Shown: one piece after another, positions 7,722 to 50,952 of the stretch | Position numbering within the stretch: position 1 is the first letter of the stretch | Layout of the letters: each line of letters begins with the position of its first letter | NCBI GenBank assembly: GCA_965178125.1 | Contig: OZ237743.1 | Location: 992,001-1,056,000 of the forward strand | Direction of reading: 5' to 3' | From: Bilabrum cf. latius | Taxonomy: Eukaryota | DNA: 64,000 bases | The notes under the pieces: model-generated | What the model was told of the DNA's origin: nothing | The model's input: the letters and a program-made list of their open reading frames with translations, nothing else | Databases searched by the model: none | Made by a program: the position numbers and the translations under genes

Positions 7722-7838
7722 GGTAAACGCAAGAAAGTGTCCATTCTTGCGGGCCCGTCATGCGCCGAAAAACGTCCGGAATTGAATTGTTGATGCACTT
7801 GCCTCGAGGAACCAGTCAGACCTGCATATTCGGCCATA

Positions 7839-17357: not shown

Positions 17358-20300
17358 ATGAGTATTCAAACCAGAGCAGCAGCCGAAGCACGCGGTTTTG
17401 CCGCGAGTGTTTCAGCCGCTATTTCTAGCGACGACACGCAAGGTGTTCTGTATCATGCCGGGCAAGGTGCTTTGCTCCATCCACCGCGATAGTTTCAGGG
17501 CCTTCGGTTTCCGCCTGACTCTCACGGACCTGTATCGCATGCAGCGATTCATGGGAGCTCCAAAACGCTCCAGCTCCTCCTGGATTCGTTCCACCTGAGC
17601 CCAAACGAGAGATCTTCCCAGGGCATTACACCAATGATGCAACTTGTCAGATCGTATGATGTTTTGAAGGAGAAAACGCTTGCGTCTTTCCGAGAAATTG
17701 CTCAGATTCTCGTAGCTGCTGGTACGGAGGGACATGAGGTCGATCTGGTAAGGCAGAGGTTTGGGGCTTTGCTTCAAGGTGTAGAACTAGACCTGCAATA
17801 ACTTTCTAATTTTGTATTCATTTGAGACGCAGGAAGGTAATTCTGCATTGCATTGGGCGTACCGCCATGGCGTGCCAGCGGGCCTTCTTCCAGACTGCAT
17901 TCGCAGCAAGGGAGCGCTGGTTGAGAACAACGATGGGTACACCCCGATAGAATATATGCGCTCGAAAGAGACAGCTTGCACGCAATTTGCAGACCCTGGC
18001 AAGACTGCCAGAGGATTGGAGCCTGGTAGAGCCCAGCGTGCATCCGGCTCCAGCGTGCAGCGTGCCACCGGCTGCTAGGAGCAGCAGCTGCAAGCGGTTG
18101 ATTACCATCGACTCGGCATCTGGCCCGGAAACACTTCCTCCCCATTCAATAGTTGGGCCTTGGACAATTACGTGCGGCACATGTAGCGGTAGGGGCGTGT
18201 CATACGATAGGCAGTTGTGTCAGGCTCCCGAGCGGAGACTCCCCTCAGCACGGCACTGGCCAGGCACAACCTCGTCCGGCACGAAGTTATCCCGTCACCC
18301 CAAGTTTCAAAACACGCAAGACATGATACCTCAGCAGTAGGCACTGCTGCATCGCCCTGCCCTGGGGCTTCTTTCAAGTCAGGCCCAGCTGCAGACACTC
18401 CAGCTGCGGTCGGGGATGCCGGAGCTGTGTTTCCTCCAGAGTTGGGCACTAACGGCACGCTGCAAGCTGCTCTTGCTGCGTCAGTGGCTGGCAATGAACT
18501 TGCACCCTGGGGGTCCTCGCGCGGCAGGATGCAAGCAGGCCGCTTCGGCTGGACTGCCCTCCACTGGGCAGCCTTCTTCCTGGACCTGCAGTCAATTGTC
18601 GTTATCGTGAATACATCGTTCGGAACTGGCTCTGGCCCGGTAGATCTGCCCATTGATTGCTTCGGGTAGACTCCACTTCATTGCGCGGTACGATCGTGCG
18701 CAATAAATGCAGAACAGCCTGGTCACTAGTACTTAGCGTCGCCTGCCACCTCTGAAACCTGTCCCGCTGTCCAAACCGGGAGCGGACTGGCTTGCGTCAA
18801 GCTCTTGGCTTCGCTGGACGCGCATGGTGATGCAGCACAGCGGTCGCACGCCCTCACTGGACACAGCCTTCTGCACACTTGCGTGGTGGAGGGACTTGGC
18901 ATGGACTTGAAACGGGTGAATAAGGCCAAAGCGAGCGATCCAGGACGAGGACCCGCCCCACCTCCAGATAAGCTGCACGCAGACAGCATCGCGCCCCGAG
19001 TCAGCCAGCTCGTTCGCTTGATCAACGTCATCAAAGCAGCCGGCTGTTCGCTCGAAGAGCAAGATTCTCTTGGCTTGACCCCGCTCGACCTAGTTCACCA
19101 AAGAGTGCAGCAGCTCGTGTCGGCGGTGCCTAGCAGTGGCAGACGCAGAGGCAAGCAGAACGATACCAAGCGACGAGCCATAGTCACAGCGACGTTTTCC
19201 CTGAGATAGGCACTTCGGTCTGCACCCGCCACGCTGTCGAAAGTATTTGACGGCTAGTCAAGCTTTCGGGCAAGCCGCGACAAATCGCCGCGTCGCTCCG
19301 TGCGATTCGATGTGCCTGATAAACCGTTACCAACACGTGTCCCATCGAGCCTGCCGGGTCCTGTTGCTTCGTAGACAACCAAGGCAGACCCCCATGAGAG
19401 TTCGCCTCTGCAAGCATCAGGGGCAGAGGTGATCCAAACTGGTGCACTGGACGCTTTGGCTGTATCGGCTGCCGATGCCAAGGCTGCTCCAGTTCACGCC
19501 GCGACGGGCGTATTGGAAGTATACGAACCTGTTGTCGACTGGCTCCAGCGCATCTGTCCCGGAGCTACAAGCAGTGGTGCGCAAGCAAAAGGCAGCCCAT
19601 GGGCGACAGCCGCCCAGATGGAGCGACTCAGGCGGCTGAGCAGAGTAAGCTTCTCACCGGTGCTCAGCCAGCTGGTTGCTTCGGAGCAGGGCGTGCAGAT
19701 GATTGGCCCTTTCAGCGCACGAAATCACCCGCTACCAGGTGGGCAACTATACCGCAGGAGCAACGGGGCCGTCTCCTTAATGCAGTGCTAGGCCGAAGTC
19801 GCCCCCAGCGGCGTGCACGGCTTCGTGGGCGTGGTCGAGCAATTGCCACGATCACCAGACGGGCGCGGCGGGATGCCGCTTCACGCCGTGCCTGTCCTCT
19901 CGAGCGGGCTACCACCTGAAGTCGAAGGACCCAACGTGCGTATGGCCGCCGTGCAGTCTCCCTCCAGCCACGCCGGTGTATCTGAGAGCGGCAGCCAGGA
20001 GGGGGGGTCTGGCTCTGCCTTGCAGTCCTGGGCCGGTGGCTCCAGCTGCAGGGACGGTGACTCTGCCAGCACCGGGTCCTACTTGATGCGGCATGCGCGC
20101 ATCGCGGCTCTGTGGGAGGAACAGGACTTCACAGGTATACCGGGGGAAGGTATCAGCTGCACTTCGAAGGATGGAAACGGTCCAAGCGCAGGCACGGCTG
20201 ACAGAGTCCCTGGTGGGCCACTTGACGTGACTGCTACGCCCAGCGACGCTGCTAGAATCGCTGCATCTGGATCAGGATAGGAAGAGGAAGATGATGCCTT

Positions 20301-20805
20301 CGTGTCTCCTCTTATACTGGGATACCCAGCCCTTGTGGACCGTGCCGAGGCAGTCGCCAAGGAGAGGGCTGCTTGCAAGAGGGCGGCACGGCAGCAGCGA
20401 CGAGAGTAGCTGCGCGCATCGAGTGAATACACTTCGGACACAGAGCGCGGCGGTCGCCCACGGCTGGTCAAAGAGGAGTCCGGTGTGCGCTCTGGCACTG
20501 TACGTGGTCATGGTAGCGCTACAGATGCTCATGCTGAAGGTAGCCCGCCCCTTCCCCCGAGTTGGGATCGGGCGTGGAGCGAGAGGGTGGGCAGGTACTA
20601 CTACTTCCACACCGAAACTCGACAGACGCAGTGGGACACCCCAGTTCTGGAGGGGGCAGGTCGGAGCGACATCGATTCAGATCAAGCGTCCGCACATGCT
20701 GGGAAACAGGATGCAGGAACGGGTGCAGGTGTATGCCTGACCAATGGGGCGGATGCAGCTTTGACCACTGGGGTGGACAATTCTGATACCGCGACTACCG
20801 AGTAA
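17358..20805 (+). CDS. Ankyrin-repeat protein with C-terminal WW domain (intron 17748-17832)
   Basis: VDL|EGNSALHWA, GYTPIEY, GWTALHWAA, DCFG*TPLHCA, DSLGLTPLDL; WW domain LPPSWDRAWSERVGRYYYFHTETRQTQWDTP. Six track ORFs share frame +1; 13 TAGs; ends TAA. Confidence 0.85.
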
Positions 20806-21024: not shown

Positions 21025-24000
21025 TCACTAACGTCGCACATTGGAATCCAAGTCAGTTGCAGCAGGCACCTTATCCTGCGCCGTGCCGCGCTTGCGCAGT
21101 CCGACGCCTGGCCGACTCACTATCTGAATCTCCCTGAGGTCCTCGAGAGCCTGCTCTACCACCTGTTCGGCCACCAGTGGCGTGTTCTCCTGAGAACGCA
21201 TCCGCAGGAACGGTGACAGCATCCACAGTCGCTGCTCGATGGCATCCGGGCTGCCGTCGTCGCTCGCAGATCCGACGCCACCGGATGGGAGTCGATCGTG
21301 GGGCGACCTGGCGGGGTCTGCAGACATCCAGTCAAACCTGCCCTGACCTGCTTGACCATCCCCCATACTGCCGCCGCCCTGCCTGTCTCGAGCGATCAGC
21401 TTGCTAGCGAATGTTGCCGATAGTCTGCTCCACTCCCTAGGCTGGTGCTCATGCTCCTGCTCCTGCTATTGCATCTGGCCATGATCAGCATCCTCGCCGC
21501 CGTCACCAACGTTGCCACTTTCGCCCAAGGCTTCTCCCAACGTGCCGTCTCCCGCCCCTGACTCAGGACTGCGAAGACCTCCTAGCCCGGTGTGCTCCCC
21601 AAACGCAAACGCGAAATCCTCCTTCTCCTCCAAATCGATCGAAGCCCACTCCTTGGTCCAGCTGGCGGGGACTGAAACAGCGCGCGAGCTGGCACGCTCC
21701 CCTCTCGCAAGTGATGAAGATCTACCCAGCAAGTCAGAGCTGCCGAAAGCGTCGCTGTCGTACTCATCTTCGTCTTCGTCACTGCTCGCGTCAAACAGAA
21801 CTGGCCCCGGGTAGGAACGCATGACCCCGGAATTCTCGTGCACAACTGGCTTCGGGAGCTCAAACCCGTGCGTGGGAACGTGGTTGCCTGGCTTCGCTGC
21901 GAATGCCTGGGGCCTCGAGAGCACCGTAGAGCCGTCAATGCCACTTTTCTCCGCTGAATCCACGGGAAATGAAGTCTCAACCTTATGCCACTATTCTTGG
22001 GGAGTGGCCTAGCCACTGCCCGCGCTCTAGCTGGAGTCATCCGCATCGCCGCCAGCCACGCCTGGTCCCTCATAGATACGGCTGTCCACACCATACGGAT
22101 CCGGTGTGTCATCACCCTCCAGCACACTGATGCGGAGTGGGGCAGCCACAGCCTGTGCCACTTTGTCCACCTCGTTCACGCCGCGCACCAGGTCGGACCC
22201 GGCACCGAGAGCACCAGACCCGCCCCCCGACACAACCAGGTGTCGCTGCAGCTGCTGCACCGCGCTCTTGAACACCTGCGTGGGCGACTCACCCGACAGC
22301 CCGCTTCCTGGTTCTCGATACACAGTGACGTCAGGTAGTGAGGACCGGGATGCCTCCGCGCTCACAAACCTGGCCGCCTGCCGCCTTGATTGCTCCCGGA
22401 TGCGCCTGCGCAGCAACGCGCTCACTTCCGCTGGTGTGGGTGGATGGATACCGCATTCCTGCAGCACCTCTCGAGCGTGACTCAAGAATGATGGTGGCTT
22501 TGATCTTGATCGCACGTGGCCCCGCGAGCTTGCTGGTCCCCCTGTCCCTGCGATTGTCTGCGCTGCCCGTCGCCTCTCCTGCAGTGTGGGCATGTGCATC
22601 ATCTCTTCAAACTTTCTCTTGTAAATGGCCTGCACTCGCTTACGAAGGCCGCTTGCAATCAGCATCATCCGAATAATGGACGAATTGATGAGGTTGCGAA
22701 GCTGCACCCGCTGCCGCACCCGCAGCCGGTGGTCCTCGCCGAACCGCAGGCCGCAGGCGCGCATCTTGGCTCGCAGCTCGCTTCGGACCTGCGGGGCTTC
22801 ACCGTGCTCTGTGCAGGCGAGGTCGACGACAGAAAGGACCTATATCGGAATCTTCGAAAACCGCTCGTAGCTCTGTATGCTGTCGAAGGGGTGAGGCGCT
22901 TGCTTCAGCTTGGTTCGGTGGCCTGCCGATTGCCCCGCCTCGCGTTCTTGGGCCTCTGTGGCAAGCTGCTCTGTGAGCTGAAGCAGGACCGCGGGCGAGG
23001 CTCCCCCACTGGCCAGGCACCGCACTAGCTTCAGCGCCAGGAACCACGAGCGGTGTCTGGCTGGGCACAGGGCATATACCTTTGCTCCCAGTCGCACATC
23101 ACCGGCGGCGTGTGCTATATCCAGACAGGCTTCTGCAATTCTGTGCGTACTGCCTGGGGGCAATGAGCTCAATGATCTTTGGCTCAGAGGAGCGAAGTCT
23201 TGCCCCACCCCGAGAGTCGATGCTACTAAGCTGTGCTCATTGGATTCACCAGCAGCAACGCTTCCAGACTGGGAGGGTTCGCTTCCCATGCAGCGCCAAA
23301 CAAGAGATGCGGCTGCCTCGACGTCGCCGCCCCTAGACAGCGATGCCGCCCTGGCAACAGCCCACATGGAATTCAGACCGTCTACAGGTCTTGTTGCCTG
23401 GCTGGTATCCTAGTTACGAGCTTCGCTCGACCTGAACTCGGCTTCTTGCTCTAGCATGTCGGACACGAAGTGAACAAGCACGTCGGCCTGCTTGCCGGAT
23501 TGCTTGCTGATCGACAGTCCCAGCAGCGTGTGAGCCATGCGATCAACGGGCAGAACCATGCTCCTCTGTGGACCGTATCCAGCCGTTGCGATGGAATTCG
23601 TCGCGGCTTGCAGCGCTATGCCCACCTTTCTCCCGTGTACGGCTAGGTTCATCACCTGCCGCCAAGCCCGGCTCACGTCACCGACCTGCAACTGCACTGG
23701 ACCCAGGTCCTCATGGCCGACTGCTGCCGACAGATCAGGCGAGCCAGCCTCCCTCCATGCTGCAATCGCTTCCCGCACGGCCAGGATCGCTGCGTCCACG
23801 TGAGTTGGCAACTGGGGCCGCGCTGCATCGTGCGAGGTTGGGGCATCCTGCACGGCAGTACGATCGTCGTATGGAACAGCCCCTGCTGGAGCAGTTGCAA
23901 CTGCCTGCAAACGTGTTGCGTTTCCGCTGTCCCAGCTACCGTATTTGACGCCCTCCTCCCCCACCAGCGGGATATCATCTCTGGTGGAGCCGCTCTCACT

Positions 24001-25338
24001 GCGTCCTGGTCCAGACGCGAACTGCATGCCGTTGAGCTTCTGAGTAAGGCCTGACATTGCAAGCTCAGCGGGAGACAAAGACTTGACAAATTCCTCCAGC
24101 GAAGCAGTGTCTCGGTCCCAGGCAGCCCACTGAAGCTGCACCTGCCGGATCCCTGGCCGCCACTTGGATGCATGTCGTCCGGTCTCATGCGGCTCGCGGT
24201 TCGCATCCGATCGAGCCTAGGACTAGCCCAGGCTACCCTATGTGTGATTTCCTGCTGCGGGATACGCGTCGTCACTGCCCGGTTTTGATTCAGAGTCGTT
24301 TCTGTGCCATGCATTTTGTTGAGACTAAGCCGGGCTAGCCGCACCTCCTCGGCGCCTCATCCTCAGCTGCCTCAGTATCCTGCCGCAGTCGATCGCCTCC
24401 GCCAGAGACAGGATCAGGCTGAGATGCTCGCTGAGGCGCGCCTGCCGAATGCGACGCCGTGCCTGTCTCTCGAGAACGTTCCCTTTCTGTCCGCTGGTTC
24501 CCAGCGAACCTCTAGCCACCTGTGGCGAGGAGGCGGCACCGGCACCTTGTGATGCTTGCGAGCCCTCTGCTGCTGCTCCTGTTGTTGCTGCTGTGGCCTC
24601 CTGCTCGGCACTCATTTCGCTTTGGATAGCAGCCACATATGATTCTCGCTCTAGAACCTCCTCTCCCCTTGCTAGCATGTTCGTATACGCAGCAAGGAGC
24701 TGCCAGTGCACTGGTCCCACCGCGGGCGGTGCCTGGCCTGCCACGAGATGTGCGCCAGAGGGCATGTCGCTGGCATTGGGCTACATGATCCGGTCATTGT
24801 CATCTACTATCGCGGCATGTTGCCATGGTATTCGACCTGTGAGGTCCCCTGCCAGTCGGAGGCCTTGGGCGAGCAAGCCAGGCCGCCGTGCAGCACCTGC
24901 TGCTTCAATGGCAACACGAGACATCGACACGGCGTGCAAATACCAGCCGATGTACGCCCGGGCCATGGCACTGCCTGCATTCACTCGCTGAGTCCACTCG
25001 TCTCTCTTTCCCAGAATGCGCGGCCATTCTGACTCGAGCAGCCGGCATGCCCTGTGTGCCCGCCCTGCTCGTAAGCTCCCGTACACACGCTGCAACAATT
25101 CACGGGGATGAGCCTCGGTTCCAGTTGCGCTTGACCGCTTGATTGTACTGCTTGAAACAACACCGGGTACTTCATCCTGGCTAAACTACCCAGCATGAGT
25201 AGAAAAATGCTAATGAGGTACACCATGTCTGCGAAAAGCGTGTGTGCCCCTTGTGATTCGCCATGAATTCCTCCAAAGCCGTCTAACAGGAAGCTATATG
25301 TTCTAAACTCGCGCATGGGGGGCGGGTATTTGGCCCAT
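21025..25338 (-). CDS. Large hypothetical protein (~1437 aa), possible mitochondrial presequence
   Basis: Seven track ORFs in one frame, joined through 16 TAGs with no TAA/TGA; ends TAG-TGA at 21030-21025. N-terminus is Arg-rich and acid-poor (RRLWRNSWRITRGTHAFRRHG). Confidence 0.7.
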
Positions 25339-25438
25339 GATATCAGAGTACGAAGAAATTCTCGAGAACTGTGAGCGTGGACGGTCGGCACTTGTCACAT
25401 TTACCTAGATTACGTTTGAGCCCATTTAAAGCTCACAA

Positions 25439-26771: not shown

Positions 26772-27145
26772 GTGTCAGTTACCCTCTGTCTGTGTAAAAC
26801 TGAATTAGATTCAATTTCGCACAACAAATTACTTACCCGCCAAGACCTCTCTCTTGCCTGTGAGGACAAAAGGGGGTGGCCAAAGCGACTCGGAGTTGCC
26901 CCAACGCAATCCCCAAATTGCCCCCACATCCCTGACATCCCAGTCCTCTCTACCTGCGCGAAGCTAGTCATCGCTTCGGGAGGATGATGCCCGCGGGTGC
27001 TACGTGCCTTCATTATTCTTCCAAGCACCATTCCATCGGCTGCCTCTCAACTCGCGGCCTCGGGATCAACCATCAGTTACTAAGTAGTACCCTACCAATT
27101 AATCTGGTATACTTTCTGGCCCGCCCATTCCGGAATAGCTGTGAT

Positions 27146-29263
27146 ATGGACGATGATGTCCAGAACATTTTCGAGTTTGACTTATTGCAAGCACCATTAT
27201 CTCAGCTGATGATGGAATGTGTGCATCGACGGGACAGATGGAGGTTGCACAGCATGCTCGTTCGCCCGGACCCCAGAGTTCTAGAGCTATCCACCACGCT
27301 GCTGCGAGGTTGCTCATCCCTTGTGGGGTTGCAGCTAAATGAAATCATAAGAAACTTTCACCAGGCGTTCTTACTTGCTGATGCCATCCGTAGCAATGCG
27401 CATCTTGAGGAGCTCAGCCTACGAGACTGCAGTATGGGGCATGCGGGCGCAGTGGTCTTGGCTCGGTCTCTCATGGACTGCGACAAACTCAAGAGTCTGC
27501 TTCTAGGTTATACACCACTGCCGTATCCAGCGGTGAAGAGTCTTTGCAACTCTCTCGAGCAGATGGAAAAATTGGAGCTTTTAGGGATAGGGTTAGGGTC
27601 CCATGGCGCCAAGTAGCTGGCGGCAAGCTTGCACCATGCCTCACGTCTGTAGTACATTGATTTATCCAAGAATCCAATTAGCGATGTGGCTGCCGAGGAA
27701 CTCGTGAGAGCGCTTGAAAACGTTGGCTGTCTGCAAAACCTGAATTTGAGCGAAACTGGGGCTGCAGCCTCGACAGCGCGCGCCATAGAACAGTACTTGT
27801 CGTCAGGAAGGTGCAATGTCAAATTCTTGAGTTTAATCAGTTGTTATCTGGACCAGAGTGCGTGTGAGGCCTTGACTAGGGGGCTTGCAGCAAGCTCAAC
27901 CATGCAGCGACTGCGAGTAGTAGACTCAGTATGCTCATTTGAGGGACTCCGAAGCTTACTTGGTGCCCAAAGTACGCGATTCACAAAACTCCGAATCTTG
28001 TGGGAGTTTGATCGCGTTGTGATTGAAGAAGCCGGGGAAGATTTTCCAGTCGACGTACCACCGCGTCCGCGCAACATGTGTGCTTTGCTTTGGCGACGTG
28101 CTGTAGAAGCTCATAGAGACGCAAACTATATCCATCAGGCTGCCTTTCACGGAAGGCCGCTGGAAATGGTGAAGAGGATCCGTCTAGGTTAGCTTGCTGG
28201 AGGTCTAACGCAGCAACGAACAGTTCGAACTGCACATGAAACCTTTCGGTGCGGTCCAGTGATAGCAGCTTGCGTCGGCTAGAATTTTGAATGTGTTAGG
28301 TTGCTTGTCGAAGCAGGACAATGCTTGAGAGAAGCGCTGCCACTGTGGCCTGCTGGGGAGAGAGCAAAGTTCGCCAATGGTAGCGAGAGGTAGCCTGCCG
28401 CCTGGGTCGAAATTTGCGCCAAAGCCTGCACTTATTCGAAAGAATTAGCGAAAGAATCTCAAGCATTGCTAAGGGCGTGGGCTTGTATAGTTGCCGATGG
28501 TCTCGATGCCGATTTCGAGTTGTGCCTGACCGCTGTGCAGGAGTTGCAGTCTGCGCACCGCAGGGTTTCCAAGTGGAAGTAGAAGGTCGAAGATATGCAA
28601 ACTTCTGGATACACTGACCCATCTCTACTGCAAGACAGTATTCGACTGTGGTCTGACAGTTTTGACAGCGGGGCGGATGTGTGGGAGCAGCGATATGCGT
28701 CTGGATCCGAATCCGGATCCAGATCATTGATGGACGAAGAATAGCAAGCGGCAGCGGTAGCGGAAGAATTGGAAGTGCTTGACTTGCAGAAGCACCCCAT
28801 GGCTGAGACCATGGCGAAACACTACGATCGCTGGAAGAAGCTGAGGCAATTACACCTTCGATAGCAAGCTGCGGCTGATTCGCTCAAGCGGGCGCATGCT
28901 GACGCATTCCAGAAATTTCAATCGCTTACCCACGCTATTGCTGGACTCCGAGATAGCGTGATAGCCCTGTCGAGCAAAGCCAGGCCCGGAAGCGATGGCG
29001 GCGCTGTGCACGACGCGACTTCGCTAGCTGCCTACCTGCCCGACAGCTCATTCCGTAAAGCGGTGCGGGGAGTAGTAGAGTCGGTATGTGATTGGTCCAA
29101 AATTGATAGAGAGCCCCTTGCCGCAGAACTGATACCTTTCTGGACCACAGTATGTGAATAGTGGGCAGTGCACAGCTGGGTGTTGCCGGAAGGTGGGCTT
29201 GAGGCTGTGCCGACACTGCGTAATCTGACAGTTAAGGAGTTGATGGTACACAAAACGGATTGA
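27146..29263 (+). CDS. RNI-like leucine-rich repeat protein with ankyrin-like and coiled-coil regions
   Basis: LEELSLRDCSMGHAGAVVLA, GAK*LAASL, L*YIDLSKNPISD, LQNLNLSETG; IHQAAFHG and ECVRLLVEAG. One frame with 9 TAGs; ends TGA. Alternative start at 26984. Confidence 0.8.
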
Positions 29264-29678: not shown

Positions 29679-29682
29679 GTTT

Positions 29683-29930: not shown

Positions 29931-32900
29931 TCATTCAGCCATCAAGCCGTTCGCGTACGACTCCCGTGTGGCGTCCAGCACGCCAACCAGTGCCGAGCCG
30001 CGCTGCCTCATGCCCACCACCATGTCCCCGGGCTACTGCTCACTTCCACTCGCGACCCCGCCCGCGAGGACCGCAGTCCCATCCTTCAGCACATCAAACC
30101 TCCGAGCCGCAGCCGCGTCAAGCGCCCCCACGAGGGCCGCCTGCACCCGCTCAGGCTAGCCGCCCCCGTGCCCCACCACACCGCACCAATCCAGACCGGC
30201 GCTGTTCCTGTTGCTACCTGGCGAGCCAGGGTCCGCAGGGGCATCTACCAGCCCAAGTCCTGTCAATTGGCGGTCAATCGCGCTTATGCTGCCCTCTGAC
30301 GCGCCTTGCTTGCCGCACGCCGCCACCCAACGAGCGGACGGAACGCCCCCCCATCCGCCCAGCCCCGCCGCCGCGTCCCTGCCCGACCCGGCCAGGAGCG
30401 CCACACCAGCATCCAGCCCGCCCGTAGTAACCAGTAGCAGCAAGAAAAGCACCAGCCAGCCGCACACGCTCGCAGAGAAAGCCGCGTGAAAACCCACGGG
30501 GGTGCTCATCACGTCCAGCAGGACACCCTAGATTCCGCTGTGCTTGGAAACGAGAAAACCAGCGCGCTTGTCCGCCGGCAGCGACGACGCATCTCCGCCG
30601 CTGTCGTCTCCCTGATGATGATGCTGCTGCTACTACATCGAGGACGCGCGGATTCCCGAACCCCTCCCTTTGCCCTCGTCCTCCCCAGGCCCGCTGACCC
30701 TCTCCAGCTCCTACTCGGCCTGCTCCAGCCGCACGGTGACGCCCCGAAGGTCTGCAGCCGCCTGGGCCTTCTCGTCCAAAGCGGCGTCCCTCTCCTTCTG
30801 AAGCTCCAAGGAACGTTCCTCGAGAGCTGACCGGCCCCGCTTGGAGGCCTCCAGCTCCTCTTCCAGTCCAGCGGCCCTGGTCCTGGCCGCCGCCAGCTGG
30901 CTCTCGACCTCTGCTCGCTTGTTCCTCTCCTTGCCAGCCTCCTGCTACAGCCCGCTAGCCCTGCGCCTGGCCTCGTCAAGCTCCCCGCCCAGCCTAGCGC
31001 ACTCGTCCTTGGACCGCTGCGCCTCGCTCTTGTGCCCGTCCCCTTCACGCCTGGCCGCGGCCGCATCGTCCTGCGCCCGCCGCAGCTCGCCCTCCAGCCG
31101 TCGCACCTCGCTCCGCAGCTCGCTCGAGGCCCGCCCCCCGTCGTCCTGCGCCTGCCGCAGCGCGTCCATCTCACCCTTGAGCTGCCCCGCCCTGCCCTCT
31201 GCCTCCCTGCGGCGCGCCTCTGCCTCCTCTCGCCTCCTCTCGGCCTCTTCCCTCTTCCTGACCTCGCTGCTGACAGCCTCTTCGGCTCGCTTGCGCGCGT
31301 CCTCAGCGGCTCGCTCGCCTGCCTGTGCGCGGTCCCCGGCCTGCTTGAGCTCGGTGCGGTGCCTGTCCAGCTCCTTGCGGAGCTCCGATCGAGCGGACTC
31401 GGCGTCCTCCTGGGCCCTACGCAGCTGCTGCCGAGCAGCCTCCGCCTCCTCGCGGGCCGTGTCCGCGCCTCGGCTCGCGGCCTCGGCCTGCTCCTCGGCG
31501 AGGGCTGCACGCCGCTGCAGCTCCTCCACCGTGGCCACGGCGCCCAGCCTCGTTTCCTGCTCCCCTTCCAGCGCGGCCTGCGCCTCGTCGTACCGGCCCC
31601 GCAGCCCCTGCAGCTACTCCCTCAGTGCCGCGGATTCCTCCTCCGCTGCACTGGTGCGCGCTTCAGCGTCCTTGAGGGCATCCCTTGCCCTGCGCCCGTC
31701 CTCCTTGGCCTGTCTCTCCGCAGTCTCTAGCCTCTCGCGCAGCGAATCGATCTCTTTCTGTGCCTCCGTGGCGCCTTCCGCCGCGTCTTTGCTTCGATCC
31801 GTGGCTGCCGCCAGCATCGACGTGAGGCTAGACACGCGCTGCTCCAGCGCCTGCAGCTGCCCCACGGCTTGTTCCCTGTGCCGCTCCGCCCGCTCCGCCT
31901 CATCCTTCCACCGGAGCAGCTCGGGCTCCAAACGGGCTCTCACTCCTCGGAGGGCGTCCAGCGTCTCTTGCCTGGCCGCCGCCTCGAGCCGCGCGGGAGC
32001 CACAAAGGCGGGCTTGAGCCAGTCACGGTGGGTCCCGGACACGGCGACAAGGGCCTGGCTCTCGCCGCCCTGGGCCACTAGTGCGGTGCTCGGGTCCCTG
32101 CCGTCCCCACTCCGGAGCGGACTGCTGCTGGCGCTTGCCGAGGACTGCTCTAAACGCTATCCCTTGCCTGGGCTGCCCTCCACCGCATCCCTGGCGCTGG
32201 CGGTGGACCGGTCCAGGCCCAGGAGTCTCGCGGCCTGCGGGGCGATCGGCGGGGGGGACGCGATCTCGCGCGGCACCTTGCCGTTGTCCTCCACTGCCGC
32301 GCGGACGCCCCTCCGCACCGCCTCCATGGCCGTCTCCTCCCTTGCTGCCGCGGCATCTACGGCCACTGTGGACACGGCGGCATGCCTCCTCTCGTCGTCC
32401 AGCAAGGCCCGCAGCCTGTGCATCTCCGCCCTGGTCGTGGAAAGCACGCCGTTCTCACCCCGCATTTGTTCCCTGAGCGACTGGGCCTCGGCCTCCGCCG
32501 CCACCGCCCTCCCCTCCGACTCGGCCAGCGCCCGCTCGGCCTCCTGCAAGAGGGTACGGAGCTCGCTCGCGTCGTCCTCCCTGGCCTGTCGCTCGAGGTC
32601 CGCGTCCGCCCGTGCCGCCGCCAGCTCCTTCTTCAGGCGGTCGCTGGCCGCCCTGGCCTCATCCGTCGTGCTGTCTGCCCCCGCCCGCGCCGCGTCCAGT
32701 TCGTGCCTCGCCTCCTCCAGCTGGTCCCGCAAGGAGTCTGCAAGCCGCCGCTGCCTGACGACCTCCTCCTCGGCCTCGGAGGCTCTGCGGCGCTCCCGTC
32801 GCAGTGCCTCTTCCGCCTCCTCCGCGCGTCGGATGGCGGCCTGCAGCCGCGCCTCTCTTTGCGCCGCTTTTTCCGCCGCTGACGTCAGTCTCGCTTCCGC

Positions 32901-34954
32901 GTCCTGCGCGACCCGTGCCTCCGCATCGACCTGCCTCCTAAGGTCCTCGATCCTTCGCTCCAGCCGGGGGACCTCCACGTGCGGCGATCCGGCGAGGGCC
33001 AGCTGCTGGCCGCCTGCTGGTCTCTGATTTGTTCCCTGCGAGGACCGGGCGGTCCGATTCACGCCTCCGCTGAGCTCTGCCACCCTCAGAGGCATGTCCC
33101 TATCCCTTCCCCTATCCTCGTTGCGGCTGCGATCCAGTCTGGCCGGCGACGCGTCGGCGGAACGGGACGCGCCGGAGCCTCCTGCCGCGGACCGTCCTAG
33201 ACGCAGACCCGCCCTTGATGCCCGCAAAGACCCGCCCGCGCCCACGCTCGCGCCGGTGCCCGTCCCAGCTCTGGAGTCCTTCAGCTGGGAGTCCCGGAAG
33301 GAGAACTCAGATGACTCGAGTTCGTCCTGTTCCCCCACGGTGGGGACAGTGGGGGGTGCCCCTAGGATACGGGGGTCCTCCGCGTGAGTGGGCTCTGGCT
33401 TGCGGGGGACCGAGTGCAGCGTGCTGTAGAGCTTGCGCTCGCGCTCGGAAAGGGCAGCGGACGTGGGCGACAGCACGTCTTCAGTGCGCAGTGTCCGCCC
33501 GCGCAATCCACCGGTGGACTCGCCGAACTGCAGGGGGGCGAGGCCGTCTCTTTCTCCGTCTCGTCCATCGCCACGGCCGCGACCGTCCTCCCCATCCTCG
33601 TTCTCTCCCTCCTCTTCGTCGAACGAGAGGTCGTGCTGCACCGGTGAAGGGATCTCCACCGACCTTCGCTCGGACTCGGTGAGCTGATGCTGCTGCTGAT
33701 GATCGGCGGGCGAGCCAGCAGTATCGCCTGCGCCCCTCTGACTCGGAGCTGGGCCAGCCACGTCCACGTCAATGGCCGACACGTCCCCCGCACCGGGACT
33801 CAAACCCAGGGCCGCGTCCATGTCAATCGAACCCGCTCGGGAGGAGTTCCCGGAGCGAGCGCCGGCCCTGCCGCCTGCCGCGCTTCGCCTGCCGCTCATC
33901 GCACCATACCCGGCCCGGCCCTCCCTTGTTCCCTGGCCGGTGCTGCTCCGCCGGCTGCCGCTGTTGCTGCGGGCACCCGACACTGACCGGACCGACAGTC
34001 CCTGCTGCTTCACCTGCCCCCGCACGCCCGACAGCCGCCTGCGAGTCTCGGCGCCACTGCCCCTCCCCCTCCCTCTCCCTCTACTACCAGTACCAGTACC
34101 AGTCGCAGATGATGGTGCGTGCAGCCCAGCGCGCAGTGAGGCCGCGTGCCTCTCGGTCGCAGCCGCGTCCACGCTCCTTCGCTCTGCCCGAGGCCTGGCC
34201 TGTGAAGCCCTGGATCTGGATCTGCCCCCGGCTGCGGCGGCGCTCGGCTCCTCGACCCATACCTTGCTGCTGGAGAGCTCGTCAGGATCGGCTGATGACG
34301 ACGGGTGGCCGCCACGGGAGGGGCGCGGCGGCGGAAGACCCAGGCCCGGGGGAGCGTCTGCAGCCGTGGCCATAGAGAGTCGTTTGGCAGCTGCGCCGCG
34401 CTCTGGCGTGTCCCCGGTGCGGCGGCGTTTCTCACGAGCAGCTGTGTCGTCCCGCTGCCGGCGCTACGGGCTTCCAAATCTCCTGGACGCCAGGACGTCC
34501 GCATCGATTTTCTGCACGTATTTGTACAGGTACCGGTGGTAGCAATCGGTACTATTTCCGAAGTGGCTGGCAGCCATACGGTGAATAGCTGTGGTAAATC
34601 CCTTTGCAGTTAGCACAATTTTGCCCATGTACGACTTCGAGGCTGTGCTGCGGAAAATAGAGTCCGGTGACATGCTGGTCCCCCCTTTGTTTCGCAAAGC
34701 AATCGGTCCAAGGTCCGTACAAAAGTCACGAAACTCATCCTGGCCTGCAAATGAAATAAATGAACGTAATATTGATAGTCAAGTCTGATTCGAGTTCAGT
34801 CAACCACAAGAGGACCGCTCAGATTCTGCTGGCCAGGATTCGAACTTGCAAGCTAACGTCACAACGAAGGTGTACCGGTCTCACTCATTTCATCACCCTA
34901 AACATATGTATGGAATAGTTTCTGTAGCGCCAACGAGCTCTCGTACTCCGCCAT
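29931..34954 (-). CDS. Large coiled-coil protein with N-terminal EF-hand/p25-like domain and C-terminal transmembrane segment (intron 34884-34745)
   Basis: Spliced start MAEYESSLALQKLFHTYV*GDEMS|QDEFRDFCTDLG. ORFs 34464..34697, 32157..34373, 31614..32078, 30945..31538 and 30156..30512 share one frame with ~11 TAGs. E/A/R-rich heptads; GWLVLFLLLLVTT; ends TGA. Confidence 0.78.
29934..30090. repeat. Direct repeat, right copy (current 3' coding end of the coiled-coil gene)
   Basis: Matches 26614..26771. Confidence 0.9.
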
Positions 34955-35189: not shown

Positions 35190-38100
35190 ATGAGCACACA
35201 GCAGCAAGATAATACGTACGACTGGGGGGTAAGTCACCTGGTTAAGGGCGTCGTGCTCTCATCTATGAGCGAATTCGAATCTGTTCGTGCGACGCAATCT
35301 GCGCCAGTGGCTATGATCTCGTACTAGTATCGCAGTCTGGAGGTGACAGTGCCTTGAATATGGAACAGCTGGCGACTCCTGGAGCGCAGGACAGGGCTGG
35401 ATACGGCGCAGGTGATAAGAGTGCCCGTCGTGGTCAGGCGGCGGACACCCCAGCCCCACCAGCCCTGACTCCCTCCCAGACACCGTCGGGGAACGCCGTC
35501 GCGGAGCCGAACGCGCCCCCGCGGCAGGTCGGCCACAAGCAGGACGAATCGTCGGCAGGAGACGATTCCAGAATAGGAGGAACAACTAGTGCAGCCATGG
35601 TACGAACGCAGATAGATGCAGCGGGCAGCGACAAGCACGAGCAGCCGCCCTTGCAGGCCACCTTGGTTGGGGGCGGCGTCGCTGGTGGGGCCGCAGGCAC
35701 CACCCCGCCGCCCCCCCTTCGCAGAGCCAGGGCGGGGGGTGACGCCGATACAGGGGCCGCAGACGGTGGCATGCCCGATTTGCCGCCGCCGATCAAGCTG
35801 TCACAAGTGGGCAAAGGCGAGAGTTCCGGATCAGGATCCGGATCCGGGGCGAGGAAACCCAGCCTGTCAATCCAGGTGGCGACGAGACAGGAGGAGGGAG
35901 AGGGCGGCGAGGGGGTGGGGGCCGGGTCAAGTGGGGACGGCGCAGGTGAGTGGGGCGCCGATGCGCCCAAGCAACCGGATAATGGCTTCGCTGAGTGGGG
36001 TGACGCTTCCGGCGGTACCGGTGCTGGGGCTGGTGCAGGCGGTGAAGATGGGGTTGATAGTTGGGGCACAGGAGCGGATGCCGGCGCGGATGCCGGCAAG
36101 TCAGACGGGGGATCCTCGGGTGATACAGGGAAGAGCGATCCCAAGAAAAAGGAGAAGAAGCGCGTCACTCCCATCTCGACGAGCGGGGAGGCGGGGCCTG
36201 GCTGGGACGACGCTGCAAGTGGCGCGACGAGTGGCACCGGCAAAGCCGGGGGCAAGTCTGATAGTTCTGCTGCAGGGAACAGCGACGCGGGGGTGATGGC
36301 AGGTTGGAGCGACGAAGTCACGAAGAGCGCGCAAGGGGCCGGCAACACCGCGCAGAAAAAGGTGGACGTCCGCAATGCAAGGCCCTCCTCGGCTGCCTAC
36401 CTCGCGGCAGCGCGTCAGAACGGGCGCATGGCCCAGATCATGGTGCTTGACTCGGTGGGTAGCGGCAGCGGCATGTCTTATGGTGCGTATGGTAGAAGTG
36501 GAGTGAGTGCCGTGCCAGGCCAGAGACGTTCCAGAGACACCGCCTTCCCCATGCACGGCAGGTAGGCCAGAAGCGGTGCCCATCCCGCTGGCGAATCGCG
36601 CTACTCTGGAATCAGAGAGGAAGGCGCGATGGGACCCGACGAATTCGTTTCGTACGATGCGTATGGCCGCAGGCGGAAGCACCGTAGGACAGCAGCGGGC
36701 CGGCCCGAGTCACTGTTCGACAGCGTGGAAGGGGGAGCCGCGGCCGTGCTTCGAGGCAGCTATGGCGTGGCTGGCACCGGTGCGGGCAGGCGTTCCGGTA
36801 CAGGGGCTGGCGGCAGAAGCAGGGGCCGGGCTGCCTACGATGGCCATGGGAAGGGGTTCGCATTCAGCGCGCAGTCACGGTCCGACGCGAGGGCGCTGTA
36901 CGAGCACCTGCTGATCGAGGATCCCGCCGCCTTGGACGAGGCCGGGGAAGTCAAGGAGTAGCCCACGTTTTTGGAGCGGTGTGGCGGCTCGGTTGCGGTG
37001 TCTGCGCTCGACATCGGCCCCGGTACGGCGGCGGCTTCGATGGAGCTGCTGCCCTGGGAGCTGCCACCCGGTGGGAGAACAGAGGTTCCAGAAGGTTCGT
37101 CAACATCGTCGTCATCGAACGCCGCAGGCAGTGCGTATGCGGCTAGCGACGGCCATGCTCCTCGGAGGGCAGCTCTGCCTCGACGCAGGCGGTGGCGGAT
37201 GACAGGTGCACGCAGGGCTGGCAGCAGTGCGATAGGCGGGATGGGCGGCTTGGACCAGGGCATGGTAGAGGATGGGTCTGCCGGGACTGGGCAGGCACTC
37301 GTGGCGTATGGTAGCAGTAGCAGCAGCAGCAGCAGTGCGGCGGGTGCTGGCACAGGCACGCGCGCCCGGTCGGTGCTGACTGCAGTGTCTCAGCGGCTGG
37401 GCGAGAGGCAGGCCGAGTTCTCCGCGTCGACAGATCCCGTCGGTCTGGTGGAGGCCATGACGGCCCAGTCCAAGGGAACAAAGGACGTGGTGCCCGCCGG
37501 TGACAACTGGTTGTCGCGGGGCTCAGCCTCTGGAGGCTTTGCGGGTGCTTTGTACGGGCTCTGGAACACGGTGGGATGGGCGGTGGGACTCGGCGGCGAC
37601 GGTGATTCTGGTGGTCGACAGGACGGGGATCCTCGAGAGTCGCTGCAGGGCCGCTTCGAGAGCGAAATTGGAGCCGCTCAACATGCTGGCGTGGTGGAAG
37701 TCACCGACCGGGACGATGTGGCAGGTGACCAGGAGGTGCAAGTTGGGGAGCACGGCACAGACGTGTTCGACGCCCCCAGGGCAGGTGCTGCCGCAACCTC
37801 TGTGGAAGGGCCGATCAGAGTCACTGTGAAGTACGAGGAGCTGGCTGGTACGAAGCGCGGCAGCGCCGTGGTGCTCGTGCGGGACGCTGGTGCGGAGACG
37901 GTGGGGTAGGTTAGGGAGAGAGCCGCGCTGCTGCTCGGGAGGCAGGGACTCGGCTTCGGGCCGGCGCTCTCCAGACGACTCGCCGTGCTTTCAGACAGGA
38001 AAGCCAGGGAATTGCTAAAGGGTCAGGAAGTCTTCGGCCCCGCCCGATATGCCCTTGTGCCGGACACGGTCACCTGCCACAGCGCAGAGGCCAGGTCTCG

Positions 38101-39970
38101 GATCGGCGTGCCGAGCATGTCACTCCTGCCCCTCTCTGCCGAATCAACGAGCTTGCAGGAGGCCTTGCAGGTGAACACGGAGGGTCTCGGGGGCTCCCAA
38201 CCCTCTCACGCTGCCCTTGATGGCCTCACGTTGGCGATGATTCGCCTGGAGCAGCCGCGCTCGGAGGCCAGCGAAGCGGCAGCCCGTGCTGGCAGCGCGG
38301 GGCAGCAAGCCCAGGCTGCTGGTGAGGCGGAGGAAGAAGGGTACGAGAGCTGGGAGGGAGACTTCGACGACGAGGAAGAGGACGCTGTGGACGGCATGGG
38401 CGGTGGTGCGCGCGGTCGGGCTCGCACAATGAGCCGGAGCAGGTCGAGGAGCCTCTCCCAGCTGCGAGGTGCCGGCTTCGCCTCGGCCACGCGCAAGTAC
38501 AGCATCTCGGTGACCACATTCAACGTGCTCGCCCCCTGCCACTTCCGTGCGGCAAAGGGGAGCAAGGGCGGGGCGCCTGCTTTGGCGCTTCCCCGAGGGA
38601 AGCGGCGCGGTGGTGCCGGGCCCGACAGCGGGGCGCTTGGTTCTTCAACTCGTCGTGGCGCGCAGTCTCGTCGGGAAGCCGACAACCCGGCTTGGTGGCA
38701 GGCCCGTGCAGACCTTCTCTGCCGCATGATTCTGGCTCGTGGTGGAGACGTGGTGTGTCTGCAGGAGTTCTGGTGCGAATCGGAGCAGTACCAGCAATTC
38801 GTGGCGGACCGACTGAGCACTACCTATGACATTTTCATGAAGCAGAGGACCAAGGGGAAGCCAGACGGCCTAGCTACGCTCGTGCGACGGGTGCCGGTGA
38901 GGGCAGATGGTGGCCATGTGCATCGCATCCTCAGGCATTTCGGTGCGGACTTTGGCGGCGTCGGGAACAGGGTGCTGCACCTGACAGAGCTGGAGCTGCA
39001 GCCGCTGCCATCGCGGAGAGGCAGGAGAGGCCATGCAGGCGGAGCGGCTGCCAGCGGAACGGAAGAGGCCAGCGAGGGCGAAGATGAAGACTAGCACCAG
39101 CGCGTTGGGCCCCGCCGCGCGGTGGTTGGCAACGTGCACTTGACCTTCCCACACAACGAGCACGACCGTAGGCTGCGCTACTGGCAGGCTCTCATGGCCC
39201 TCTACAACCTTGAGAGATTTTCGGCGGGCATCCTGGGCGCCGGTGCCACGCCAGACGGCTCCAGACCTACCCCGCTGCGTGCGGGTGACCTTGAGATCAT
39301 CACGGGAGACTTCAATCTGCCTGCAATGGATGGGGACAGAGAGGGTGGGCACCCCTACCGCATCAAATCGGATCCCGTGTACCGGATGCTGTTGGAGCGG
39401 GGCTTTGTCTCTGGGTACCGCCAGTTGGAGCGAAGGGAGCCGCTGGCCACCCACGTGACTCACAGAGGTGACTATTCCACGGCTGATTTCGTGTTCTTCC
39501 GTGTTGTCGGCAAAGCGGGCGCGGGACTGCGAGTTGGGGGTCGCCCTGGCAGGGTGATCTCTCCCGTCCAGAGCTTTGACCGTTCGTTGCGGATTGATGG
39601 CGCCGGGGATGCTCCGAAGCCGGGCCCAGTCAGCGAATGTGCAGGAATTGCGGAAGCATACGCCCGCACTGCTTCGCTGTGGCCGTTCCAGATGGATGGG
39701 TTTGAGCTGCTTGAGAGACCCGTGGCAGGGTACTTTGCGTAGCCGGCAGTTTCTCTTCGCTTGGAACGGGTGGAGGACGATGCATACGCTGCCGAGGAGG
39801 CCGCTGGCGACGGTGCTGCTGCCCCCAGTGATGCACCGCAAGACGCATAGGCTCGTGTGTCCGCGGCCATAGTGTCTGAGCTAGAGGCTAGCGATTGGGC
39901 TCATGCTAGCGATCACCGGGCACTTTCGGTGGGTATTCTGCTGCAGGAGCTGGAGGGGCACCCAGCGTGA
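35190..39970 (+). CDS. Endonuclease/exonuclease/phosphatase (EEP) domain protein with long disordered N-terminus (intron 35229-35335)
   Basis: TFNVLA, VCLQEFW, DGLATLV, GNVHL, TGDFN, ADFVFF and terminal ASDHRAL (after TAGs 39740 and 39848). Five track ORFs in one frame, 6 TAGs; ends TGA. Confidence 0.85.
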
Positions 39971-42254: not shown

Positions 42255-45200
42255 ATGTCCGATGTTGATTCAATGCTTCGTTCCGTCAATAGTATGCTCA
42301 CATCAGATATCCTACGGGGCTTGAAGACGAGATTTTTGCACGCCCAGAAACGAAACTAGCGTGATGGACAGGACGGCATAACAGTGGCAGAATTCGCTCG
42401 CGTCATGCTACCGGCCGCGAGACAATTTCGACCGAACGAAACAGATAGTGAGAAAACTTCGTACAGCATGGCAATTGAACTTCTTGAGGTGACGCGCGAA
42501 GCCCCATGCGTACTATACTTGTGTCAAACTCGACCCCAACCGCAGCCGCGCTCGTGGTTGATTTGATGGAGCTCTTCGATAGAATCGATCAAGATGGCGG
42601 TGGTTCTCTCGATTGGGATGAATTTACAACATTCTGTGTCGAGAATGGAATGAGAGCTACCTCAGTCAAGGAGAGAAAGCCCGTCATTAGGCATACGGTG
42701 AGTCTCGCAGTTGTCACGCCGGAATGCGGTGCCGGTAACGCTAGCTGCTGTTCAGCTATAACTCAAGTTCAATTCGCAACAACACTATCATACATTGCAG
42801 TACAAAGAAATACAGTCCCGCGACGAAGATCACGGTCAAGTTTTCTACAGGAACGTCGCCTTTTTCCGATTCGTGCCCGAGATTCAGCAGCTGTGGCTCG
42901 CTATGCAAGATAGCAACATCCTAATGGTCTACACGATAGATGGCCGTCTCATTGCCCGAATTCACGTAGCGGGATCGGCGGCGGTGCACAAGCCAATTGA
43001 CGTAAAGGGACTCCGGCCGCGGCAGGATGAGGATTTGTCTGCTGTTCACAACACGGTGCAAGGGATGGCTTCCACTGGGAAATACTCGCAGACCCAGCTG
43101 GTTGGGCACGTTAAAGCAGCACAGCAGGAATTAGATGCAAAATGGGCCGCGTCCTACCTGAAACAAGGTGCGCCTTCGTTCGGCAGCCGGAGCGCTCAGC
43201 TCGACCGACGACTGGCGGCCCACATTATGTCCTACGAAACGAGCAGGAAGATGGCGTTGAAGCTGGAGAAACGCTCCGCTTTGAAGCAGGCAAACATTAA
43301 TTCCAAGCGTGACGCAGTTCGAGAAATGGAAGCGCGCTCCGGCGGGCTGCTCGCCAAGTCGGCCGTTTCCAAGCGCCCGCAGACCGCCCCTGCCCGCAGG
43401 GCGCAGGCTAGACTGGCTACCGGAGGGAGAGACTGCTCCGAATTCGTGCCAGAGGAGCACAAGAAACAACTCCAGAACTACTCCGCTAGTACTCGCCGCA
43501 AAATCATCGAAGAGGAGATATTCAGGACATCTTTTCCGGAGACGAGCCAGGCTGCAGCGTATGTTGCCATGCGGCAGAAGCATAGGAGAAACCGCATCGC
43601 ATTGCGTCACCAGCTGCAGCGAGGCAAATACGCCATCAAACAGCATCGGAAAGACCGCCACGATGAAAAGCTGTCCACCGGCGCGGTGGACAGGAAGCAG
43701 CTGATGGCATCTCGCGTCACGGTCACTCGCAAGGTGATCGACCGAGAGGCACCGGAGTCGCGCAGGCGAGGCGTCGCGCAAGACGACTTGCCGTGGGAGG
43801 ACATGGCTATTCGACCTGCTTTTGCCCCCTCTGCTCCGTACCGCGGAATCTACGGCAAGTTCAGGAACGCCCCCACCAAGGTGCAGCCCAAGGTGCTGCG
43901 CGGGAAGCGGGTCCCCCCCACCATGCCCCAGCTCAAGCCGCTCGCAACCAGCAAGGTGTCCGGAGCAGTCATACCAGACACGTACCGGCATCTTTCCCCC
44001 GCCAAGCGAGCCTAGGCTCGTTCAAGCGAGCAGGCGCAGCCAGCCGCTGCGTTCAAGAACGAGAAGCAAATCACCGACGCGAGCAGGGCCAGCCCTCTCG
44101 GGCACTTGCGGTCGCGCGGCTACTCGGCTGAAGCGAGCGCATCCGGGTCATTGGACGAAGCTAATTCACGGCAGAACAAACCAAGTGGTGACGAAGAGAA
44201 ACCATTCGGCAAGGGGATTGACCATGACGCCAGAAATGCCGAGTACGACCCCGGCACGATCGACAGGGTTCGGGACTTTGGAGACGTGCCGATCGACCTA
44301 CCTCACAGCGCCACGGCCATCAGCTTGCGCAAGTGCGCCAACCAAATTGCACACGCTGAATACTGCCAGGTACCGATGGACGGCACGGGCAAGAGCGACG
44401 CTGTGGAGCACGTCATCGTGGTGTCCACCACGGACCAGGTACTCACTTTCTGGACTGTTTCCAACTTTCGAAGCCTCGGGCTTGTGGACACGACCTCTGT
44501 GCATCGAGAGCTGGTATGGAGTACCGCGGGAGAGGCTTTGTTTACTCGCACCGACAGCGGCAATGCAGTGCAGGTGTGGGACGCCCGCCTCCGGCGCAAG
44601 GTTCATTCGCTGGAGGACCCGACCGACCATGCAACGGCCCTATGCCGCATCAACTCCCTGAGCATCGTGTGCGCGGGTAGCATGGACACAAATATTTACG
44701 TGTACAAGGTTCCTGCGCTCGCATGGATGAAATCTGCGAAGCCGCGGCTGCTTGCAACCCTTGACGCTCACGCGCGAGGCATTCAGGCCCTCTCAGCTGA
44801 CGAAAGGAGTGGCCGCATGGTTTCCCTGGGGACGAGCCCGTCGGAGCTGTTCGTGTGGGACATGCGCCTGCTCCGCTTGCTTACAAAAGTCAGGGGGCAC
44901 ACGGAGGGAATTGTCGGGTTTGGCCTCATGTCCGCCGACCCTTTCCACCTCATGACGTGCGACTCGGTTGGAATCCTGCGCATGTGGTATGTCGGCAGCA
45001 CGACGCAATCGTCACTGACACAAATTCAGGTCAGGTCCACAAACACGAAGGCAAGCTTCCGGGCCGCCGCCATTGCATCTCCGCATTAGCAGGTGGTCGG
45101 CATTTCAGATCGGGTGCACGTGTTCAAGCGTGCTGCTGTTGCGTCGACCTTTCCAGTGCCTCACCGGGTACTGTATTCGGACGTGCTGGAGAGCTTTGTC

Positions 45201-50837: not shown

Positions 50838-50952
50838 CACGGACCGATGGTCCATCGCCGATCATCGGTTCACCGCATTGCGTGCACTTTTTAGCAATAT
50901 CGCACTACCAATTGATACACTCTTGCGGTCGAAACAAAGCAACGCTCTGCAA

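Follow-up and report, generated by a model that had tools for sequence, protein, structure and literature searches.

We analysed a 64,000-nucleotide (nt) stretch of DNA, hereafter the window, which corresponds to positions 992,001 to 1,056,000 of contig OZ237743.1 in the assembly GCA_965178125.1, labelled Bilabrum cf. latius, and we asked what the triplet TAG means in its genes. The results indicated, with a probability that we put at roughly 0.86, that the window belongs to the nuclear genome of a GC-rich, intron-poor flagellate in whose cytoplasmic code UAG specifies glutamine (Gln), while UGA, mostly, and UAA act as stops. Such a combination corresponds to NCBI translation table 15. An earlier sequence-only reading had proposed UAG = Gln from the company that TAG keeps with Gln codons; the proposal is supported here mainly by evidence which that reading did not have, namely a codon-by-codon comparison with relatives. 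The window has a G+C content of 61%, few introns, and long frames carrying BipA/TypA, WD40 plus EF-hand, ankyrin plus WW, leucine-rich repeat (LRR), DnaJ-type zinc-finger, endonuclease/exonuclease/phosphatase and 5'-nucleotidase domains. Shorter frames encode a glycoside hydrolase of family 88 (GH88), two exons of the flagellar nucleoside diphosphate kinase NDK7, a PUL-domain protein and an NMNAT-like first exon. From these domains, the scarcity of introns and the flagellar NDK7 it follows that the window is nuclear DNA, and that its source is a eukaryote with flagellar genes.

TAG is read as sense in nearly all genes of the window

The 13 frames that were counted comprise 15,511 codons, with 96 TAG codons beside 481 CAG and 154 CAA, and TGA (10) and TAA (2) were found at their ends only. 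In the five other reading frames of the same DNA, TGA makes up 1.42%, TAG 0.64% and TAA 0.26% of codons, showing that TAG is about as frequent in frame as off frame, and that TGA and TAA are excluded in frame. If TAG is counted as Gln, it provides about 13% of the Gln codons of the window. Under the standard code no frame exceeds 975 codons, whereas reading through TAG gives a longest frame of 2,691 codons and others of 1,719, 1,615, 1,574 and 1,466. Frames of at least 300 codons sum to 14,542 under the standard code and to 29,137 with TAG read, compared with 16,850 when TAA is read instead. Hardly any gene of the window lacks an in-frame TAG, and four further genes (GH88, NDK7, PUL and NMNAT) carry it as well.

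In-frame TAGs were also found inside conserved coding sequence, as expected under table 15. The phmmer alignment to Escherichia coli BipA was unbroken over query residues 507-772, which span the TAG at residue 622, and the TAGs of the GH88 and NDK7 genes fall within the domain alignments of their proteins.

A distant relative identifies the amino acid as glutamine

The amino acid read at TAG was examined with two metagenome contigs of the JGI (Joint Genome Institute), L001 and L002, which encode identical proteins and were reached through the JGI protein P0259 in a homologue search with the WD40 gene of the window. The orthologue on L002 is a frame of 2,984 codons with 25 TAGs and a TGA end, and the longest standard-code frame on its strand has 374 codons. 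MAFFT alignment with the window gene gave 2,586 aligned columns, of which 1,252 (48%) are identical. Since the L002 frame is open only when TAG is read, a relative at 48% protein identity uses TAG in the same way.

Restriction to columns with a local identity of at least 0.5 left 1,292 columns and 18 pairs of a TAG with a sense codon, the TAG lying in L002 in 15 of them and in the window in 3. The partners were Gln in nine cases (CAG six times, CAA three times), Ala in two, and His, Glu, Arg, Val, Leu, Phe and Lys in one each. Ordinary Gln residues are conserved at a rate of 0.49 in the filtered columns, and every other residue faces Gln at a rate of at most 0.078. When the 18 partners were scored under the substitution profile of each residue, taken from the same window/L002 alignment, Gln came out ahead of all other residues by at least 22.1 log-likelihood units. 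The values relative to Gln were -22.1 for Asn, -22.8 for Lys, -24.3 for His, -24.4 for Glu, -31.5 for Tyr, -36.4 for Leu, -37.0 for Ser and -44.8 for Trp. In the unfiltered alignment, Gln faced 11 of 32 TAGs and still ranked top by 13.1. A control in which each sense codon was named from at most 18 partners gave the correct residue for 53 of 55 codons (median margin 13.5); AAG, called as Arg, and ATG, called as Leu, were the exceptions. The positions of TAG in these homologues thus match Gln, and a match to Leu, Glu, Tyr or Lys, which the sequence-only reading had named as the contrary outcome, was not seen against the relatives. Only one of the 11 TAGs in the window's WD40 gene faces a TAG in L002; the positions of TAG have therefore turned over almost wholly between the two, and the reassignment is old.

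TAG and CAG are exchanged between closer relatives

A closer relative, with about 92% DNA identity to the window, was found in run X9, and 40 of its 1,294 differences were listed, without selection on our side. Thirty of the listed differences are substitutions within 21178-21502, in the 1,466-codon gene, and 17 of the 30 lie at third codon positions, a bias which indicates purifying selection. At codon 1320 of this gene (21468-21466) the window has TAG and the relative CAG, and at codon 1328 (21444-21442) the window has CAG and the relative TAG.

Eight protein fragments from relatives with 80-97% identity, all called under the standard code, were compared with the window genes. Four of the eight end exactly at a TAG of the window (P0001 in BipA, P0122, P0123 and P0124), and three end just 5' of a window CAG (P0260 at codon 215, P0258 at codon 756 and P0257 at codon 1167). 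The remaining one, P0121, ends 5' of CAA 1319, which adjoins TAG 1320. For comparison, Gln and TAG codons together account for 4.7% of all codons. P0260 and P0258 come from one 4,208-nt contig, so that the end of P0260 is internal to that contig if P0258 lies downstream on the same strand. TAG and CAG or CAA are thus freely exchanged between relatives.

Other searches added little to the comparison. The homologue search with the 17-TAG gene returned four fragments, and a metagenome scan with the 1,466-codon gene as query gave 148 pattern matches with no relative among them. Searching all representatives with the ankyrin/WW gene (14 TAGs) gave 132 matches, nearly all of them in the WW-domain region and three in other stretches; one 72-residue fragment of a relative was among them, which includes none of the TAG positions. 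The TAGs of the 5'-nucleotidase frame lay outside its PDB alignment, and the duplicated stretches within the window offered no usable TAG pair.

TAG codons with and without glutamine neighbours

The site from which the sequence-only reading started reads ATG TAG TAG CAG CAG CAT CAT CAT CAG on the minus strand (30638-30612). These letters were confirmed; they belong to a frame of 1,615 codons on the minus strand (29931-34778), free of TGA and TAA up to its end, in which the two TAGs are codons 1382 and 1383. The translation of the site under table 15 is RASSMQQQQHHHQGDDSG, and 30612..30638(-) gives M Q Q Q Q H H H Q. The TAGs in the other contexts named by that reading, at 21466, 46785, 47754, 57906 and 28742, are likewise in frame within long frames, as are all nine of the quoted TAG codons that were checked. 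In the roughly 92% identical relative of run X9, the 148 nt of 30522-30669, which include this site, are replaced by 130 other letters, which marks them as a hypervariable, fast-changing low-complexity segment.

It had also been claimed that TAGs sit inside Gln-rich runs. Of the 96 in-frame TAGs, 15 (0.156) have a Gln codon at position +1 or -1, a rate above that of every residue type; Gln codons themselves reach 0.137, and no other residue exceeds 0.108. The enrichment is only modest: the other 81 TAGs have no such neighbour, and the binomial P value was 0.06 against the rate of Glu and 0.09 against that of Lys or Met, so that this part of the argument is weak when taken alone.

TGA is the main stop and TAA most likely a second one

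The complete long frames end with TGA in 10 of 12 cases and with TAA in two, once as a TAA TAA tandem, and of six further frames five end with TGA and one with TAA. All four C-termini that are defined by homology (BipA, GH88, NDK7 and the WD40 gene) end with TGA. Internal TGA was absent from the 15,511 codons, compared with 1.42% in the other frames, which is what is expected of a codon that terminates translation.

Termination at TAA was supported as well, less strongly than at TGA, and no TAA-ended C-terminus was confirmed by homology. The WD40 gene pair (2,691 + 2,984 = 5,675 codons) has 36 TAGs and no TAA, and about 11 TAAs would be expected at the CAA:CAG ratio of 154:481. In TGA-delimited frames that overlap the 13 frames, every TAA lies at the frame edge. 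All in all, TAA is most likely still a stop, with evidence less direct than that for TGA.

Observations that weigh against the glutamine reading

A number of observations count against UAG = Gln or limit its evidence. Half of the well-aligned partners in L002 (9 of 18) are not Gln, which equals the ordinary turnover of Gln residues, but comes from one gene pair, and a TAG in an upstream exon of the WD40 gene faces Lys in L002. The comparison with run X9 draws on the 40 listed of 1,294 differences. The ends of the protein fragments are stops inferred from proteins alone, and the end of P0257 could be the end of its 1,554-nt contig. At TAGs 1133 and 1139 of the window, fragment P0124 has Ser and Leu, and five of the ten other residues in this part of the alignment differ as well. 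Among 119 mostly bacterial homologues of BipA, the TAG column holds His in 61, Leu in 43, Gln in 10, Arg in 2, and Ile, Tyr and Phe in one each; Gln does stand there in P0002 and in the Symbiodinium protein P0003, the two homologues nearest to the window protein. The TAG column of GH88 shows Thr twice, and that of NDK7 shows Arg in the best match and Ile in four mammalian NME7 entries, both columns being uninformative because they are variable. The columns of distant homologues are thus variable, give no signal for Gln and are not decisive. The absence of TAA from the window frames is partly circular evidence, because TAA delimited these frames. No tRNA gene turned up when the window and L001/L002 were scanned, and no eRF1 gene was seen among the frames of the window.

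Alternative explanations

A double meaning of TAG, Gln within genes and stop at some gene ends according to context, as in Condylostoma, the karyorelicts and Amoebophrya sp. ex K. veneficum, is unlikely. The window spans 64 kb only, and one of its frames ends with TAG TGA, so that this TAG could be a real stop; however, TGA directly follows all four C-termini fixed by homology, and the 12 complete long frames all reach TGA or TAA, none of them requiring a stop at TAG. We consider it quite improbable that TAG and TAA both encode Gln, as in NCBI table 6, with TAA kept rare by the high G+C content. TAA is indeed scarce everywhere (0.26% of off-frame codons), and the codon-usage score around single TAAs, 0.15 ± 0.09 in the coding frame and -0.16 ± 0.09 in a shifted frame, was too weak to tell coding from non-coding sequence. 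On the other hand, two long frames end with TAA, one of them with TAA TAA, the WD40 pair lacks the approximately 11 TAAs that its 36 TAGs would lead one to expect among 5,675 codons, and reading through TAA adds little frame length (from 14,542 to 16,850). A code in which both UAA and UAG (UAR) mean Gln was accordingly rejected, as UAA was not found as a sense codon. Another residue at TAG is very improbable, whether Leu, the reading known from the rhizarian exLh and from some of the phyllopharyngean ciliates, or one of Glu, Lys and Tyr, which other ciliates use. The BipA column, mostly His or Leu in bacteria, the Ile or Arg of the NDK7 column and the Ser and Leu of P0124 speak for it, but the partners in relatives fit Gln alone (Leu -36.4, Glu -24.4, Lys -22.8, Tyr -31.5), the method named 53 of 55 control codons correctly, TAG and CAG replace each other in both directions, and protein fragments of relatives end at CAG codons. 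Leu in particular, found in one of 18 pairs and 36.4 units below Gln, was discarded.

Editing of TAG to CAG in the mRNA, with the code itself remaining standard, is a still more remote explanation. RNA editing occurs in dinoflagellate organelles, and comparative data are blind to the difference between editing and decoding. A 107-nt GT..AG interval (35229-35335) is missing from contigs of runs X5 and X7 but present in a DNA-like 11,109-nt contig of run X6, so that X5 and X7 include spliced cDNA. The zero-difference pieces listed for X5 and X7 cover 26 and 4, respectively, of the 52 in-frame TAGs in the stretch compared, which is weak evidence against editing given that the type of these runs was guessed; none of the runs matching the window stretch is listed as RNA. 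It is hardly credible that the code is standard, with the TAGs being either assembly errors or genuine stops of fragmented genes and pseudogenes. Only TAG interrupts the frames (96 times, compared with no internal TGA or TAA in 15,511 codons), the sequence is identical in runs of four studies, relatives at about 92% nucleotide and 48% amino acid identity keep their frames open likewise, and the third-position bias of substitutions reveals purifying selection. Recoding of the pyrrolysine or selenocysteine type and programmed readthrough do not fit 96 sites in 13 frames with Gln-like partners, and the ambiguous codes with three stop codons in frame (Amoebophrya sp. Kv, Condylostoma, Blastocrithidia) were rejected too, as no internal TGA or TAA occurs in the 13 frames or in the 2,984-codon frame of L002.

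Possible decoding machinery and origin

Under UAG = Gln, a tRNA-Gln with the anticodon CUA, one base away from that of the CUG isoacceptor, would decode UAG, and eRF1 would have lost or weakened its recognition of UAG, so that it no longer competes there. New TAGs would arise from CAG through C-to-T transitions that are now synonymous. Such silent changes would produce both the two-way exchange of TAG and CAG and the occasional TAG inside runs of CAG and CAA, for example at 30612-30638.

The trait was seen in relatives at three distances. It is common to those at about 92% nucleotide identity, 80-97% protein identity and 48% protein identity, and hence probably old and clade-wide. In the BipA tree, the window protein and P0001 group with P0002 and P0003 of Symbiodinium (support 97/91 and 100/99); since long branches were flagged in this tree, an affinity to dinoflagellates is only a single-gene hint. 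It is possible, though we lean slightly the other way, that UAG alone was reassigned to Gln independently here, in an undescribed event within a flagellate that is GC-rich, poor in introns and allied to dinoflagellates.

Long contigs with zero differences to the window stretch 17752-27751 were found in runs X1-X7, which come from four studies and bear four organism labels. This could mean that the labels are synonyms, or that the organism has gone unnoticed as an associate, parasite, prey or contaminant of several protists that were sequenced.

Comparison with known genetic codes

The nuclear code of Iotanema spirale (Metamonada, Fornicata) has been described as one with UAG = Gln and UAA as the primary stop (Panek et al. 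2017, PMC5304391). As far as that description goes, the window resembles Iotanema in that UAG alone is reassigned, to Gln, and UAA and UGA terminate. It differs in its main stop, as 10 of 12 complete and five of six further frames end with TGA here, and in the kind of evidence, which is genomic and drawn from relatives here and transcriptomic in Iotanema. The window is further set apart by its 61% G+C and by the BipA tree, which groups it with a dinoflagellate protein. For the phyllopharyngean ciliates Hartmannula sinica and Trochilia petrani, UAG has been assigned putatively to Gln with UAA as the preferred stop (McGowan et al. 2024, PMC11687900), and that study reports suppressor tRNAs for the UAG = Leu genomes only. 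On this account, both cases share with the window a UAG-only change to Gln that was inferred computationally, but they are ciliates that prefer UAA, whereas the window frames mostly end with TGA.

In crAss-like and other phages (PMC9523058), TAG also means Gln. The codon and the amino acid are the same, but the phage recoding is viral and depends on the phage's own suppressor tRNA in a standard-code host, whereas the present case concerns a nuclear code. Amoebophrya sp. ex Karlodinium veneficum (Syndiniales) is described as having all three stops in frame, UAA and UAG being likely Gln and UGA likely Trp (PMC6394959; 10.1101/2024.09.05.611473). As there described, it shares with the window a UAG that is probably Gln and may be a relative within the dinoflagellate lineage; however, its genome is AT-rich, and about half of its genes contain UAA and UGA in frame, compared with none in 15,511 codons here. 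It is the only code deviant reported among dinoflagellates and their allies, and its code is quite different. UAR = Gln codes (table 6) are found in many ciliates, hexamitin diplomonads and dasycladalean algae (named in part in PMC5304391). They share Gln as the new meaning and, as a likely route, a mutated tRNA-Gln, but differ in that TAA is not a sense codon in the window. As far as the literature was searched, a UAG-only change to Gln in a GC-rich non-ciliate is unreported apart from Iotanema.

The lineage of the window thus adds to the already known variants with UAG = Gln. Nuclear code changes are rare in eukaryotes, and those that separate UAG from UAA are rarer; the cases named in the sources consulted are Iotanema and the rhizarian exLh (PMC5304391) and phyllopharyngean ciliates (PMC11687900). 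Each new lineage tests the uncoupling of UAG from UAA and the evolution of eRF1 and tRNA-Gln behind it, and it is unusual for such a change to occur in a genome that is rich in G+C and ends its genes mainly with TGA, which argues against a simple route through AT pressure. In practice, annotation under the standard code splits nearly every gene here and in the relatives, as the fragments P0001, P0121-P0124 and P0257-P0260 show, and assemblies and metagenome bins of the clade need table 15.

Genes and other features of the window

The coordinates of the frames and genes are collected in Table 1.

Table 1 Frames and genes of the window, in order of position.
Feature	Position	Strand	Codons	In-frame TAG	End	Remarks
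DnaJ-like zinc-finger frame	1122..6281	-		8	TAA	
PUL-domain gene	6179..7420	-		1	TGA	
BipA/TypA GTPase frame	7794..10133	+			TGA	TAG at 9657-9659 (codon 622)
Glycoside hydrolase family 88 gene	10449..11714	-		1	TGA	TAG within domain match
NMNAT-like (cytidylyltransferase-like) second exon	11695..14271	-		1	TGA	first exon in other frame, within 14289-15764
NDK7 earlier exon	15677-16363					
NDK7 (flagellar nucleoside diphosphate kinase 7) last exon	16471..17076	+		1	TGA	TAG in conserved LRAxFG stretch
Ankyrin + WW frame	17752..20805	+		14	TAA TAA	end at 20803-20808
1,466-codon frame	21025..25425	-	1,466	17		
LRR frame	26936..29263	+		9	TGA	
Coiled-coil protein frame	29931..34778	-	1,615	10	TGA	contains the site 30612-30638
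Endonuclease/exonuclease/phosphatase-domain frame	35246..39970	+		6	TGA	107-nt GT..AG intron (35229-35335) just 5'
WD40 + EF-hand frame	42762..50837	+	2,691	11	TGA	gene used for the L001/L002 codon comparison
Frame without family assignment	50839..52884	+		4	TGA	
5'-nucleotidase C-terminal-domain frame	53442..56069	+		4	TGA	
P-loop protein frame	56298..58955	+		8	TGA	
Frame running past window edge	62308..63999	+		2		

Several of these genes extend beyond the frames listed. The WD40 gene has at least two upstream exons (42168-42760, plus strand), which are conserved in L002 at 68% and 91% identity, and an NMNAT-like motif (...GSYNPVHLYHL...) lies in another frame 5' of the main frame (14272-15764, minus strand). 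At the coiled-coil frame, a 140-nt GT..AG interval (34745-34884, minus strand) is absent from one contig of run X5. For the TAG-free NDK7 exon, Protein Atlas returned only 'eukaryote, NDK7' and gave it no lineage. The PDB homologues of the GH88 gene (10449-11714, minus strand) bear generic glycosyl-hydrolase names only. GH88, the unsaturated glucuronyl hydrolase family, is mainly bacterial, and the gene, now with an in-frame TAG, may have been acquired from bacteria. A 375-codon frame at 25439-26566 on the plus strand, with hydrophobic segments, two in-frame TAGs and a TGA end but without a family match, probably represents one more gene; the long minus-strand frame to which it is antisense is spurious.

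Repeated sequences were also observed. A 154-nt direct repeat (26618-26771 and 29937-30090) is 93.5% identical; one copy precedes the LRR gene, and the other falls within the coiled-coil frame, at its 3' end. An inverted pair of about 330 nt (29348-29677 and 59708-60188), roughly 80% alike, looks like a multi-copy element; for the copy at 29348-29677, contig depth is far above that of the surroundings in four runs (384, 25, 53 and 158 in the bin 29091-29757), and many variants and small joints were seen. The Rfam scan of the window, the inverted pair included, gave no match. A direct duplication of 390 nt (60773-61162 and 63611-64000) is 94.6% identical, its second copy being truncated at the window edge. 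Both copies lie in reading frames and encode the same peptide, which therefore indicates a local gene family.

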